A DNA stretch of 64,000 nucleotides, from contig JANJGN010000004.1 of NCBI GenBank assembly GCA_026770705.1, forward strand, positions 177,010,001-177,074,000. The letters run 5' to 3'. The notes beneath the pieces are model-generated. The model had not been told where the DNA came from and made no database searches. It saw only the letters and a list, made by a program, of their open reading frames with translations. Both the position numbers and the translations under genes were made by a program. This DNA comes from Isurus oxyrinchus. Its lineage: Eukaryota. The first letter of the stretch is position 1. Every line of letters starts with the position of its first letter. Positions 19,765-34,145 of this stretch are shown piece after piece.

Positions 19765-19838
19765 CGGCAGATAGGTCAAATGTGATCAATCCCAAGTCAC
19801 TTCTTTCTCTGGGTCCCGTAAAATCTTCCACGTTTTTC
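19765..19838 (-). CDS. SPCS3: SPCS3 exon 2
   Basis: 74 nt after ttttattacAG; [24 protein letters not shown](D); followed by ATATCCTTT. Confidence 0.96.
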
Positions 19839-22034: not shown

Positions 22035-23130
22035 TTCATTTGTTTTTGTTCATTCATTCATGGGATGCAGACACTGCTGGTTAGGCCAGCTTTATTGTCC
22101 ATCCCTAGTTGTCCTGGAGAAGGTGGTGGTGAGCCACCATCTTGAACCACTGCAGTCCATGTGGTGTAGGTACACCCACAGTTGTGTTAGGGAGGGGGTT
22201 CGAGGATTTTGATCCAGCGACAGAGAAGGAACGGCAATATTGTTCCAAGTCAGGATAGTGTGTGGCTTGGAAGGACTTATGGTGGGAGATTCAACGATGG
22301 TAATGCCATTGAATGTCGAGCAGAGATGGTTGGAAGGCAAGTATTAGGCTGGTTTCTCAGCTTAGGGTCTCATGTTACCAGGTGAAACAGCAATTAAGAA
22401 CTTAGAGCAACAGTAACATGTGATCAACAATCCAATGAATTAGGTGGATGAATCTACTAGTGCTACCCTACAGCATAGACATCAACATCTTTTCTCAACT
22501 GGCATACTCAGGCAAAAGCTGAAGAGAATCATGTTCTACTAACATCCTGTGGGTTATCCAGAAACTGAACTGAACCAGCCATATAAATACTGTGACTATA
22601 AGAGAAGGTCAGCGGCTGGGAATTCTACAGCAAGTAAAACACCTGACACCCAAAGTCCATCTACAAGGCACAAGTCAGGAGTGTGATGGAATACTCTCTA
22701 CTTGCCTGAATGGGTGCAGCTCCAACAACACTCCAGAGGCTTGACACCATCCAGGGCAAAGCATTCACTCCCTCCACAGCGAATGCACAGTAGCATCAGT
22801 GTGCATCATCTACAAGATGCACTGCAGCAAGTCACCAAGGCCCCACCAACAGCACCTTCCAAACCTACAAATTTCTAGCGCCTTAAAGGACAAGGGCAGC
22901 AGATGCATGGGAACACCACCACCTGCAAGTACCCCTACAAGCCACTAACCATGCTGACTTGGAACTATATCACCATTCCTTCACTGTCACTGAATCAAAA
23001 TCCTGAACTCCCTAACAGCACCATGGATGTTCCTATGCCAAATGGACTATGTTCAAGAAGGTGGGGTCACCATCACTTTCTCAAGGGCAATAAATACTGG
23101 CTTAGCTAGTGGTATCCATACCCTGTGAAA
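22035..23130. mobile_element. Two oppositely oriented 3' fragments of the CR1/L2-group LINE
   Basis: 22035-22335 (-) and 22560-23130 (+) both match the 4270-4900 element. Confidence 0.75.
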
Positions 23131-23407
23131 GTATAAATAAGAATAAAATGATGCCCAGGGAGGCTTTAGCACACTTGCTTCTGTGCACAGATAATCAGAA
23201 AGCTGGAAATTAATGTTCATCCATGGAAATGGTTTATTTAGAAGAGAATATTTGTTCATGTTGACCAGCCTTTTTACTACTTTGTTGTAAAAATAGGGGA
23301 TTATTCTAATTTTTAATCAAGTATGTCAGGAAGCATTCTTGTAACTCTTTTGAGAAACAACTACATAGACCAGCAGGTCCCAGAAGCAACTCAAGGACTA
23401 TGCTGAG

Positions 23408-24095
23408 TAATTCTTTCGAGTACAAACCCATTTCCATCTGTTTCAGATGAAGTTACATTGTTTCATAGTTTTGCCATTGTGAGATTTGAACTCTTGATCT
23501 TGGGGTTACAAACCCAGTACCATAACCACTTGGCTATTTAGACCAAGCTAAGATTGAACAGTGTGCTGTAACTCTTTCGAGTTTTCCATCTGTTCCTATT
23601 CAGATGAAGTTACATTGTTTCATACTTTGCCATTGTGAGATTTGAACTTTTGATTTCTTTTGAATACAAACCCGTTTCCATCTGTTTCAGATGAAGTTAC
23701 ATTGTTTCATAGTTTGCCATTGTGAGATTTGAACTCTTGATACTCTTTCGAGTACAAACCCGTTTCCATCTGTTTTCAGATGAAGTTACATTGTTTCATA
23801 GTTTGCCATTGTGAGATTTGAACTCTTGATCTTTGGGTTACAAACCCAGTACCATAACCACTTGGCTAATTAGGCCAAGCAAAATTGGACAGGTTAGGCT
23901 TGTAACTCTTTCAAGTACAAACACATTTGCATCTGTTTCAGATGAAGTTACATTGTTTCATAGTTTGCCATTGTGAGATTTGAACTCTTAATCTTGGGGT
24001 TGCAAGCCCAGTACCATAACCACTTGGCTATTCAAGCCAAGCCTTAACAACTTGGGGTTACAAACCCAGTACCATAACCACTTGGCTATTTAGGC
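23408..24095 (-). repeat. Tandem cluster of ~140-bp tRNA-Thr(UGU)-like SINE/satellite units (3 full, 3 partial)
   Basis: Minus-strand unit GCTTGGCCTAAATAGCCAAGTGGTTATGGTACTGGGTTTGTAACCCCAAGATCAAGAGTTCAAATCTCACAATGGCA plus tail; A box, TGT anticodon loop and B box present; acceptor stem poorly paired. Confidence 0.85.
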
Positions 24096-26249
24096 TACAG
24101 GCAGTGACCGGGCCAATACTTAACGAGGAAGACACTAGCAAAGCGGGAGATTCTCGCTTTGGAAGTATCTTTTACAGATCAAGACTGTGAATGCAATATT
24201 ACCTCAAATTTAGTTCCCAGAAGTCAAGTACTTTGTCAAAACTGGTTAATTCATGAACCTAACATATAATTGATTAACCGACTGTGGATCTTGGAGGGGA
24301 ACTCGCAAGTGGTGGTGTTCCACTCGTCTGATGCCCTTGTCCTTCTAGGTGGTAGAGGCCACAGTTTTGAAAGTTACTGTTGAAGGATGTCTGGCGAATA
24401 AAAATGATTAAACAATACACCTGTGTACAGTAACATGTTGCATAACTTACTCCTCAATAAAGGTTTTAACAAGTACAGCACGACCATAATCTTATGTTGT
24501 GCACGTATCTCAACACAACAATAGCTTGAAAAATAGCAGGTGGATAGCCTGAAAGTTTCTCCTCCGTGTTGGTTACAAGGAGTAACTTAGTGTCATTGTA
24601 TGATTGGGTTATATCAAATCAAATTAGCTCAGTGTCCACAATGGCAACTGGTGTGGAAAAGGGGAAGATTCATAACAATGCAGTTGGGAGTATGCAGAAG
24701 ATAGAACTGGGGTAGACTGGAGGAGTGTTTTCTAAGATGCAAGTCAGCTTGATGCCAACACTGAACAGTGATTTTAAGAATACGATAGCGTCTTAGAAAC
24801 AAAGTGAAAAAAAGTGTACAAGACAAACAAGTCTTGTTTCTCTTTCCACAGATGCTGCCTGACCTGCTGAGCATTTTTGACACTTATTATTACTTATCAA
24901 AATGTCAAGGATGAAGGAATACAGAGTTGTATATGCAACTCATTAAGTTAGGAGGCACAGTTACATCACAGATAGGATTTGAACAATGGCAAGTAATTGG
25001 AGTTGAGGTGCAGATCAGGTACGATCTAACTGAATGAGGGACAGGTTTGAGGGGCTGAATGGCCTATTCATGTTCCTATCTTTCCTATTAGGATACAGGG
25101 CATCAATGGATGCTATTGACATTTAATGTTCTCACAATGCTGTATTTGTTAATGCCTTTATTAAGGAGTTGATTATGCAACATGTTACTATGCAGTTAAT
25201 GTTACAGTCTGAATAGGTAATTAAGTTTTTAGATAACAGGTACGATTTGTGCACCCATTATCTACAGAATGAATATGGATGAACATTGCTGTGTCCAGTA
25301 CTTTTGTTAATATTTCTCTACATGTTCAGCTACTTCCTACCCGTTCTGCACTACTATCATTTCAAATCTAGCCAGAAACATAGCAGAATTTGAATTTCCC
25401 TCAATTGAAGTTTATCTTTAAGCCGAGCCACAGGAGATTTTACACTATGGGCCCTGGTGTGATGAAACAGCTGAGCAGCACAAACAGTACCTGATACTTT
25501 ACACAATGTTACCTCTGCTACACACGCAAACGCTGCCAGTCTACTGGTTTTCCAAAATATACTCCAATACTTCTTCCACTGACTCAAAAGACTTCGAACC
25601 ACTTAGACAGAATCAAAACAATATCAGCCAACAGCTGCAGCCTTTAAATAAAAAGGCCACCAGCGCAGTCCCCAAGGCAAACCTGTCTGGCATTTTCAGA
25701 TGACCTAGAGAACCGGCCATATAAAATAAGAAACTTAAATTCTGCACACAGTACAGCCTTGATCTGTGGAACAAGGCCAGTGTGTTAGAGACAATCAGGC
25801 ATGCTGAAACAGACAGCTGTTATACCAATCATTAGGGGTGCTGGTGATCTAGTGAGAAGCAGTCAACCATTCTGTGCTTCAACGAAGTTTGCTAACTGGC
25901 ATGGGGGCGTTTGGAAATTATCCACATTCAGGGAAAACACTTCCTGAGCTTCTAAGGAGATCAAAATTGTTTGGTCAAAGCACAGATTGCCTCTTTCCAA
26001 AATACTTGAAATTTTGAAGGTCACCGCAATGAAATGCTACAGTGCTGGAACACAGAAACATATGCATTTCAGGAACCCACTCTCAGCAGGTCATGGATAG
26101 ATATAGACATCCTTCGATATGCCTCGAGCACAATTTCAACATTAGTGTGACTTTGCCAATTCCCAAATCACCTATTCCAATGACTGTTCCCAGCAAGCTT
26201 CATTTAGTCCTAAATTAACTGCTGTTTTTGTGCCTTCAGCCAACTGGAA

Positions 26250-31139: not shown

Positions 31140-32102
31140 TATAGGGGGGGAAGGAGGGGGGGATATGTGGGGGGGGGAAGAGAGGGGGATATGAGGGGAG
31201 GGGAAGAGGGGGGATATGAGGGGAAGGGGGGATAGGGGGAAGGGGGGATAGGAGGGAAGGGGGAGAGGGGGGATAGGAGGGAAGGGGGAGAGGGNNNNNN
31301 NNNNNNNNNNNNNNNNNNNNNNNNNNNNNNNNNNNNNNNNNNNNNNNNNNNNNNNNNNNNNNNNNNNNNNNNNNNNNNNNNNNNNNNNNNNNNNNNNNNN
31401 NNNNNNNNNNNNNNNNNNNNNNNNNNNNNNNNNNNNNNNNNNNNNNNNNNNNNNNNNNNNNNNNNNNNNNNNNNNNNNNNNNAGGGGGGATAGGGGAGAG
31501 GGGGGATAGGGGGAGAGGGGGGATAGGGGGAGAGGGGGGATAGGGGGAGAGGGGGGATAGGGGGAGAGGGGGGATAGGGGGAGAGGGGGGATAGGAGGGA
31601 GGGGGNNNNNNNNNNNNNNNNNNNNNNNNNNNNNNNNNNNNNNNNNNNNNNNNNNNNNNNNNNNNNNNNNNNNNNNNNNNNNNNNNNNNNNNNNNNNNNN
31701 NNNNNNNNNNNNNNNNNNNNNNNNNNNNNNNNNNNNNNNNNNNNNNNNNNNNNNNNNNNNNNNNNNNNNNNNNNNNNNNNNNNNNNNNNNNNNNNNNNNN
31801 NNNNNNNNNNNNNNNNNNNNNNNNNNNNNNNNNNNNNNNNNNNNNNNNNNNNNNNNNNNNNNNNNNNNNNNNNNNNNNNNNNNNNNNNNNNNNNNNNNNN
31901 NNNNNNNNNNNNNNNNNNNNNNNNNNNNNNNNNNNNNNNNNNNNNNNNNNNNNNNNNNNNNNNNNNNNNNNNNNNNNNNNNNNNNNNNNNNNNNNNNNNN
32001 NNNNNNNNNNNNNNNNNNNNNNNNNNNNNNNNNNNNNNNNNNNNNNNNNNNNNNNNNNNNNNNNNNNNNNNNNNNNNNNNNNNNNNNNGGAGGGAGGGAG
32101 GG
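31140..32102 (+). repeat. Polypurine G-rich minisatellite (~17-bp GGGGGGATAGGGGGAGA) broken by assembly gaps
   Basis: Direct reading; N runs at 31295-31482, 31606-32088 and then 32103-32202. Confidence 0.9.
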
Positions 32103-32202
32103 NNNNNNNNNNNNNNNNNNNNNNNNNNNNNNNNNNNNNNNNNNNNNNNNNNNNNNNNNNNNNNNNNNNNNNNNNNNNNNNNNNNNNNNNNNNNNNNNNN
32201 NN

Positions 32203-34145
32203 ACACCAGGACTCCACTCTCCAACCCTGTCTGACCAACACCAGGACTCCCCTCCCCCACTCCCCAACCCTGTCTGACCAACACCAGGACTCCCCTCCCC
32301 CACTCCCCAACCCTGTCTGACCAACACCAGGACTCCACTCCCCAACCCTGTCTGACCAACACCAGGACTCCCCTGCCCCACTCCCCAACCCTGTCTGACC
32401 AACACCAGGACTCCCCTCCCCCCACTCCCCAATCCTGTCTGACCAACACCAGGACTCCCCTCCCCCACTCCCCAACCCAGTCTGACCAACACCAGGACTC
32501 CCCTCCCCCACTCCCCAACCCAGTCTGACCAACACCAGGACTCCCCTCCCCCACTCCCCAACCCTGTCTGACCAACACCAGGACTCCCCTCCCCCACTCC
32601 CCAACCCAGTCTGACCAACACCAGGACTCCACTCCCCAACCCTGTCTGACCAACACCAGGACTCCACTCCCCAACCCTGTCTGACCAACACCAGGACTCC
32701 ACTCCCCAACCCTGTCTGACCAACACCAGGACTCCCCTCCCCCCACTCCCCAATCCTGTCTGACCAACACCAGGACTCCCCTCCCCCACTCCCCAACCCA
32801 GTCTGACCAACACCAGGACTCCCCTCCCCCACTCCCCAACCCAGTCTGACCAACACCAGGACTCCCCTCCCCCACTCCCCAACCCTGTCTGACCAACACC
32901 AGGACTCCCCTCCCCCCACTCCCCAATCCTGTCTGACCAACACCAGGACTCCCCTCCCCCACTTCCCAACCCTGTCTGACCTACACCAGGACTCCCCTCC
33001 CCCCACTCCCCAACCCTGTCTGAACAACACCAGGACTCCCCTTCCCCCACACCAGGACTCCCCTCCCCCCACTCCCCAACCCTGTCCGACACCAACACCA
33101 GGACTCCCTTCCCCCACACCAGGACTCCACTCCCCAACCCTGTCTGAACATCACCAGGACTCCCCTCCCCCCCACTCCCCAACCCTGTCTGAACATCACC
33201 AGGACTCCCCTCCCCCCCACTCCCCAACCCTGTCTGAACATCACAAGGACTCCCCTCCCCCACTCCCCAACCCTGTCTGAACAACACCAGGACCCCACTC
33301 CCCAATCCTGACTGAACAACATCAGGATTCCCCTCCCCAACCCTGTCTGAACAACACCAGGTTTCCCACTCCCCAAAACAAAAACAGAATTACCTGGAAA
33401 AACTCAGCAGGTCTGGCAGCATCGGCGGAGAAGAAAAGAGTTGACGTTTCGAGTCCTCATGACCCTTCGACAGTCGAAGGGTCATGAGGACTCGAAACGT
33501 CAACTCTTTTCTTCTCCGCCGATGCTGCCAGACCTGCTGAGTTTTTCCAGGTAATTCTGTTTTTGTTTTGGATTTCCAGCATCCGCAGTTTTGTTTTGTC
33601 TTTATTCCCACTCCCCAACCCTGTCTGAACAACACCAGGACTCCCCTCCCCCCACTCCCCAATTCCTGTCTGAACAACACCAGGACTCCCCTTCCCCCAC
33701 TCCCCAACCCTGTCTGAACAACATCAGGATTCCCCTCCCCCTCTCCCCAACCCTGTCTGAACAACACCAGGACTCCCCTTCCCCCACTCCCCAATCCTGT
33801 CTGAACAACACCAGGACCCCACTCCCCAATCCTGTCTGAACAACATCAGGACTCCCCCTTCCCCCCACTCCCCAATCCTGTCTGAACAACACCAGGACTC
33901 CCCAACCCTGTCTGAACAACATCTGGACTCCCCTTCCCCCACTCCCCAACCCTTTCTGAACAACACCAGGACACTCCCCTCCCCCTTCACCCACTCTCCT
34001 CCCCCTAACCCTGTTGGAACAACACCAGGACAGTCCCCTCCCCCTTTCTTCCCACTCCCCCACCCTGTCTGAACATCACCAGGTCACTCTCCTCCCCTTT
34101 TTCTCAATCCCCTCCCCCTTTTCCCACTCCCCAACCCTGTCTGTA
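32203..34145 (+). repeat. C-rich minisatellite, 35-46 bp variable unit
   Basis: (cccctcccc)cactccccaaccctgtctgaccaacaccaggact repeated some 40 times, decaying rightwards; relics to ~36340. Confidence 0.97.
33373..33604. mobile_element. Palindromic Penelope terminal-repeat insertion in the minisatellite
   Basis: Perfect inverted repeat 33373-33571 centred on 33472; candidate TSD TTCCCACTCCCCAA (33363-33376, 33605-33618). Confidence 0.9.

Follow-up and report, generated by a model that had tools for sequence, protein, structure and literature searches.

A 754-bp composite of tRNA-Thr-headed SINE copies in SPCS3 of Isurus oxyrinchus, probably joined in a single insertion by a Tx1 LINE

The tandem cluster of tRNA-like units in SPCS3 is best explained as a single 754-bp retro-insertion made up of several independent, young copies of a tRNA-Thr SINE, a reading to which we assign a probability of about 0.68. 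The likely agent is a Tx1 LINE, which would have primed at TAC/A (the slash marks the junction) and then jumped end to end over at least four RNAs. The cluster lies in the window, the whole stretch of 64,000 nucleotides of Isurus oxyrinchus DNA that was analysed. The locus itself is ordinary for its SINE family, and multi-template joining, a known accident, appears to be the usual outcome in this Tx1/SINE family.

All six pieces claimed in the first-pass annotation are present within 1 base of the places given there, and the local tandem cluster is real (Table 1). The numbering follows a 141-nt copy from the TSD-flanked singleton L021, to which the six SINE pieces are 93-99% identical over aligned bases. 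The A box, the TTTGTAA loop, the B box and the CATCTG-AAA-CAGATG hairpin are present as described, with a TTTGCAA-type loop and TGC in the copy at 23902. The reported echo of the head in the tail is genuine as well, since head positions 26-50 and tail positions 111-135 are identical at 18 of 25 nt.

Table 1. Pieces of the composite insertion in minus-strand order, with positions in the 141-nt reference in brackets
Feature	Window position	Strand	Remark
Whole insertion, 754 bp	23342..24095	-	Sense to SPCS3; missing in related organism
SINE 5' half (6-50)	24051..24095	-	A box and anticodon arm; 3'-truncated
8-nt junction piece	24043..24050	-	Below searchable length
Full SINE copy (1-141)	23902..24042	-	Most diverged (93%); anticodon TGC
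Linker 1	23881..23901	-	TTTT at end; sequence also at a site of a different dispersed repeat (GTGGTTAC/AAGCC...)
SINE head and first body (1-138)	23742..23880	-	
Second body (51-136 plus A)	23655..23741	-	91-nt module common to Tx1 3' end; 51-136 itself at 23656-23741
Third body (51-141)	23568..23654	-	Diagnostic hairpin-loop insertion, 80G, 9-nt deletion
Linker 2	23549..23567	-	Passenger 3' flank travelling with the multimer
Full SINE copy (1-141)	23407..23548	-	
52-nt passenger	23355..23406	-	Identical to single-copy DNA on C12 after a SINE-free GGTTAC site
14-nt SINE/LINE tail remnant	23341..23354	-	Last TAC coincides with target TAC (priming end)

The location of the cluster in SPCS3 stands, since two of the three exon pieces tested, which lie downstream, match Pfam SPC22; the next SPCS3 exon starts near 19838. 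The more precise placement in intron 1 is only likely. The visible window did not reveal exon 1, which may lie within positions 31144-34132, where G-rich and 43/87-nt minisatellite arrays stand around N stretches. A high-copy repeat, which we take to be CR1-like, has left two fragments in inverted orientation, one on either side of the cluster, at 22874-22941 and 24290-24356, 1.35 kb apart. These fragments are also found in the relative and are ordinary.

The insertion can be delimited from an empty site. In a related organism, one 522-nt contig in each of the runs X6 and X10 joins 24096 to 23341, so that the 754 bp are missing. The empty site reads TGTAC/AAGAATG, and only TA overlaps both junctions. 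A search for a long TSD of the block, extending to 4 kb and allowing 3 mismatches, found none, which the TA overlap of the empty allele explains. The motif at 23341 had been listed as a spare copy of the target, whereas the empty allele identifies it as the true 3' (priming) end of the insertion. Repeated insertion at GTAACTCTTT had also been proposed and is contradicted by the same data: GTAACTCTTT belongs to the element as its 3' end, and the linkers are no copies of the empty target, TGTAC/AAG.

The two linkers were described earlier as related, but they are two unrelated pieces from different loci. Linker 1 has four other exact matches, all in SINE-free copies of one repeat, and it stands behind a SINE at no other locus, so that no pre-assembled source array is seen. 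It is likely the 3' flank of a source SINE copy. Linker 2 is found at three other loci on other chromosomes (C8, C10 and C20), each time behind a SINE body. The 80G and the 9-nt deletion precede it at C8 and C10 too, while the C20 copy is without the 9-nt deletion. Downstream of linker 2, two of these loci have a Tx1 piece truncated at different points and one has a SINE. The 52-nt 3' passenger, which originates from L103, occurs behind a SINE at four other arrays (C5, C28 twice, and C10) with different upstream pieces. Such free recombination of modules is predicted by the joining of separate RNAs. No source locus with a SINE and a continuing flank was found for the three passengers, as linker 1 and the 3' passenger map to SINE-free sites and linker 2 only to other composites; this counts against the read-through origin proposed for them.

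On sequence grounds, the unit is a 141-nt, dispersed, young, tRNA-derived SINE (SINE2) with a tRNA-Thr(UGU) head. The earlier proposal of a tRNA-Thr origin and a putative Pol III-type head (A and B boxes) was supported. The Rfam tRNA model scores 37.5 bits on one window copy (E 1.5e-5, gathering 29) and 22.6-22.8 bits on two others, and an ungapped alignment of the SINE head with a genomic tRNA-Thr(TGT), counted by eye, has about 49 of 75 nt in common and extends across the 50/51 boundary. ARAGORN calls no tRNA gene in the cluster. This count of zero, together with mismatches in the acceptor, anticodon and T stems, led to the rejection of a functional tRNA cluster or split tRNA. The halves do not form a split gene either, since the 3' halves are repeated bodies shared with a LINE and largely inherited as multimer subfamilies. 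Pre-tRNA trailers were dismissed as the source of the body, because the eight tRNA-Thr-like loci read (of 87 matches; 5 called by ARAGORN) carry other trailers.

A search with a 24-nt word from the head gave 20,331 exact matches in the 4.98-Gb genome and 0 for a reversed control. Among 241 full units, the median departure from the majority sequence is 4 of 141 positions. The reported absence of poly(A) is correct. In addition, the SINE is without any run of four T, and in the absence of such a terminator Pol III is expected to read through into the flank. The fold is modest, with z of -2.3 for the body and -1.65 for the whole unit, and the tail pairs with the T arm. The SINE tail has no Rfam ribozyme match, and a hammerhead core is absent by eye. 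Marks of retrotransposition consist of TSDs at 28 of 61 loci and, for the window copy, of the empty allele, with no long TSD.

These 61 loci come from an unbiased sample, drawn as the 100 head matches that come first on C1 (0-18 Mb), after six overlapping stretches were dropped. Of the two arrangements considered, dispersed singletons and clusters, both exist: some single copies have TSDs, and 129 of 160 heads (81%) are in loci with at least two heads, a share that leans high because larger arrays are likelier to be caught by an exact word. Gaps of up to 2 kb separate 38 of 99 neighbours, where 1.1 are expected, and all 38 pairs are on the same strand. The largest arrays are three loci with 13-17 heads. 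TSDs were called at 13 of 26 single or dimer loci and at 15 of 35 arrays (16 before L049 was dropped as a tail match), against 11 of 588 in the control; the other 20 arrays show none at the SINE edges. The 28 called TSDs measure 11-17 nt in 27 cases and start with (T)TAC or TAT in 22. TAC is common to the target and the element end, as microhomology priming would give.

Local amplification had been suggested for the window, whose three full units turn out to be 3.6-8.0% apart, while random copies are 5.5% apart. Full units differ by 5.1% within a locus and by 4.9% between loci. Adjacent units are 5.9% apart across a local TSD (0 of 17 near-identical, that is, within 1.5%; background 5.5%) and 5.3% apart across other linkers (0 of 24 near-identical). 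Neighbours as divergent as random copies argue against tandem duplication, and a SINE-derived satellite (sSat) was rejected on the same range of 5.3-5.9% against the 5.5% background. At least two rare variants are common to 5% of within-array pairs and to 0.2% of pairs between loci, which points to some duplication or re-use of one source.

The linkers (n=74) comprise 32 copies of the local TSD, 7 with T-run ends by a set rule, and 35 others. Local-TSD linkers number up to eight per locus and occur between unlike units (L074, L076, L097 and others). Among 13 hand-picked loci scanned, full U6 copies are present inside arrays at L002:1400-1506, L007:1653-1759 and L015:845-951. Copies of tRNAs with short flanks and no CCA also occur inside arrays, at L097:3410-4387 (one twice) and L030:2611-2683. 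At L029, a coding sequence, presumably histone H2A-like, lies about 30 nt after the array, directly behind a SINE pair.

The first-pass annotation saw no recognisable LINE tail. In fact, a young Tx1 LINE of this genome has the 3' 91 nt of the SINE as its own 3' end. Several arrays hold long pieces that end in AAAAGATT and are followed by SINE 51-141, and this junction between LINE and body has 2,178 exact matches. Among the best 25 copies of the LINE end, 22 continue into SINE position 51 onwards and 3 stop within 51-61. The breakpoint noted in the window is, by these 22 copies, the SINE/LINE boundary. At L138:636-4547 (minus strand), the LINE has an open 1,303-aa ORF2 with the Pfam domains Exo_endo_phos (APE) and RVT_1 (RT), and this apparently intact frame suggests recent Tx1 activity. 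ORF2 is 53% identical to the Xenopus TX1 149 kDa protein (YTX2) over 99% of residues 1-800 (E 5.8e-267), and the partner LINE is, by protein similarity, a member of the Tx1 clade. Moreover, one TSD encloses the SINE or SINEs together with a 7-kb LINE at L139, L144 and L145.

The breakpoint recurs, as had been asked of it: in the C1 sample, 68 of 251 pieces begin at 51 and 137 at 1. Pieces that seem to start at reference positions 26-35 are body repeats, misaligned owing to the similarity of head and tail. The variant 127G is found in 59 of 118 bodies followed by another body and in 8 of 290 terminal bodies, a skew which indicates that body repeats are mostly inherited multimer forms. Their junctions join 138 to 51 in 35 cases and 136 plus A to 51 in 11, out of register with the head-tail similarity. 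Dimers within single TSDs at L039, L054, L064 and L073 confirm that multimeric forms of the unit occur. The Tx1/SINE target appears to be a loose TAC/A motif (22 of 28 TSDs) plus a frequently used repeat site ending in ATCTTCTTAAC, and no strict target emerged. The recurrent site in another repeat (GCTGTGCAACTAC/ATCTTCTTAAC) was seen at L043, L048, L052, L062, L067, L075, L079, L093 and L096. ATCTTCTTAAC also opens the full-length LINE, where it is perhaps a relic of an ancestral target.

The direction of tail sharing can be read from the module itself. The shared 91 nt open with a tRNA T arm, B box and 3' acceptor strand and hence came from the SINE side; judged by this tRNA-derived content, a SINE-to-LINE transfer is probable, and the LINE likely took its 3' tail from the SINE and not the reverse. 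At the other LINE end, GAGTTC precedes the 5' start at 238 places. The 11-mer of positions 51-61 was present there in 30 of 30 read (in a head in 11, a body in 10, the LINE 3' UTR in 7, other in 2), a count for which the search selected the last 6 nt; L146 is without the 11-mer. The LINE 3' module starts with the same 11-mer, and in two LINE copies unrelated DNA follows right after AAAAGATTATCA. ATCAAGAGTTC, present at both LINE ends, would be the fossil TSD of an event in which a Tx1 ancestor entered a SINE multimer. The SINE body downstream would have been retained as the new 3' end of the LINE, and the fossil duplication may now serve as a short terminal repeat for template switching.

In the proposed mechanism, Pol III transcription would run past the SINE into the 3' flank of each source copy. 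The Tx1 reverse transcriptase would then prime at TAC/A through 3' UAC microhomology and jump end to end over four or more different RNAs. If priming occurs at the 3' end, the 5' half piece would be copied last. For the TSD-separated arrays elsewhere, the likely course is either re-priming after the target overhang has been copied, in one event, or a later cut at the same site. Several observations count against the scheme: few linkers end in a T-run (7 of 74), the window block is without a long TSD and 20 of 35 arrays without one at the SINE edges, the C20 copy of linker 2 is not of the deleted type, and rare variants are shared within some arrays. For the R2 enzyme, longer cDNAs are put down to template jumping in the accessible text of PMC11194090. 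A wider proposal is offered tentatively, with the odds somewhat against it: this would be a vertebrate Tx1 whose normal product is a multi-template concatemer. Within a single insertion it would copy SINE, LINE, U6 and tRNA RNAs in series, prime anew on the target duplication that it has made, and transfer strands by means of an 11-nt terminal repeat; its 3' recognition tail would stem from its own SINE, against the textbook LINE-to-SINE direction.

The same joints could be formed in RNA, if a cellular RNA ligase (RtcB-type) first joined the RNAs and Tx1 then reverse-transcribed the multimer once. The local target DNA copied in 32 of 74 linkers needs a DNA step, which makes this unlikely. Linker 2, which joins LINE pieces cut at different internal points, speaks against it too, and the LINE 5' start joins at the same 11-nt word in three contexts, which fits homology-guided switching. 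Ligation would nevertheless agree with the full-length U6 whose U-run abuts the SINE 5' end in L002, with the TTTT at the end of linker 1, with the captured passengers being Pol III RNAs (U6, tRNAs), and with the U6/L1 chimera as described in PMC6789731. Separate insertions that stack over time, each regenerating a TAC/A target, are likely true for part of the family: the local TSD is repeated between unlike units in L074, L076, L097 and others, the SINE end is GTTAC, and such a course is proposed for tandem SINEU-3 in the available text of PMC4494074. As an account of the window, stacking is quite unlikely, because the window linkers bear no resemblance to the empty site and the relative lacks the block as a whole. 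TAC/A is also very loose, and its repeated use would require a feedback that is hypothetical here.

Local tandem duplication through slippage or unequal crossing-over, giving a SINE-derived satellite, is very improbable; for the window, the divergence of the units and the tracing of the linkers refute it. Even though TRF reports periods of 89 and 162 in the cluster, head and tail are similar at 18 of 25 nt, and near-identical repeated blocks exist in L076, L097 and L126, neighbours are no closer than random copies and the spacers derive from other chromosomes. The body junctions lie out of register with the head-tail similarity, and the 127G pattern indicates inherited multimers.

A single retro-insertion joined from separate RNAs remains the preferred reading, and it has parallels in known systems. 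Tandem SINEs and template jumps are already known; the scale and the tail direction look new. The crocodilian SINEU-2/-3 with Tx1-Mar are likewise described as mobilised by Tx1, with tandem copies around a TSD and 5' additions by template switch or jump (PMC4494074, accessible part). As described there, SINEU has a snRNA head and uses one transposon as target, and no LINE with the same 3' end is given for SINEU-1, whereas the present family has a tRNA-Thr head, a LINE with the same 3' end, a loose TAC/A target, and arrays that reach 13-17 heads and together hold 81% of sampled heads. The layouts TSD-(SINE-TSD)n and TSD-(SINE)n-TSD, both outlined for blood-clam arrays, are also found here, and in introns too (PMC11481361). 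The clam arrays concern about 3% of SINEs and have highly similar units attributed to unequal recombination in the text seen, in contrast to the divergent neighbours and foreign flanks of the present arrays.

Head-to-tail multimers are also common in the mammalian Dip, B2 and Ves families, where Dip multimers make up 49% of copies with up to 8 units (PMC8466645); Dip multimers are treated in PMC10702118 as well. The available portion of PMC8466645 presents these elements as A-tailed and leaves their origin open, whereas here there is no A tail and the pieces are traceable. U6/LINE-1 (PMC6789731) and LINE-1 chimeras (PMC11838501) likewise have small Pol III RNAs placed 5' of a retro-copy in one insertion. 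As far as the accessible text goes, LINE-1 chimeras are occasional two-part events in mammals and the R2 results (PMC11194090) were obtained in vitro, whereas multi-part products dominate a natural family here. The shark SINEs HE1, SacSINE1 and SINE2-1_CM are also tRNA-derived elements of cartilaginous fish; by their tabulated description they are set apart through CR1-type partners, in contrast to Tx1 here (PMC3747384). The accessible literature yielded no paper on a Tx1-paired tRNA SINE from cartilaginous fish, but a named entry in Repbase Reports may exist. The main text of the Zenon paper (PMC13343379), as available, mentions Tx1 0 times.

How non-LTR reverse transcriptases finish their insertions, and by what route multimeric SINEs and chimeric retro-copies come about, be it template jumping, RNA ligation or later stacking, has so far been argued from rare events. 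The present family is young, has an intact ORF2, shows such products in most insertions, and offers traceable flanks and empty sites in a close relative, so that these questions become testable at scale. It is a candidate natural model of a jump-prone reverse transcriptase.

The LINE is itself found in long runs. At C2:61831275-61890208 (L170-L178), nine LINE 5' junctions lie on the same strand, about 7.36 kb apart, and each is preceded by the same 37-nt spacer and SINE positions 1-61. Together these loci make up about 60 kb of Tx1 copies, nearly full-length and arranged head to tail. Shorter runs of LINE junctions with 7-kb spacing are present on C4, C7, C8 and C9.
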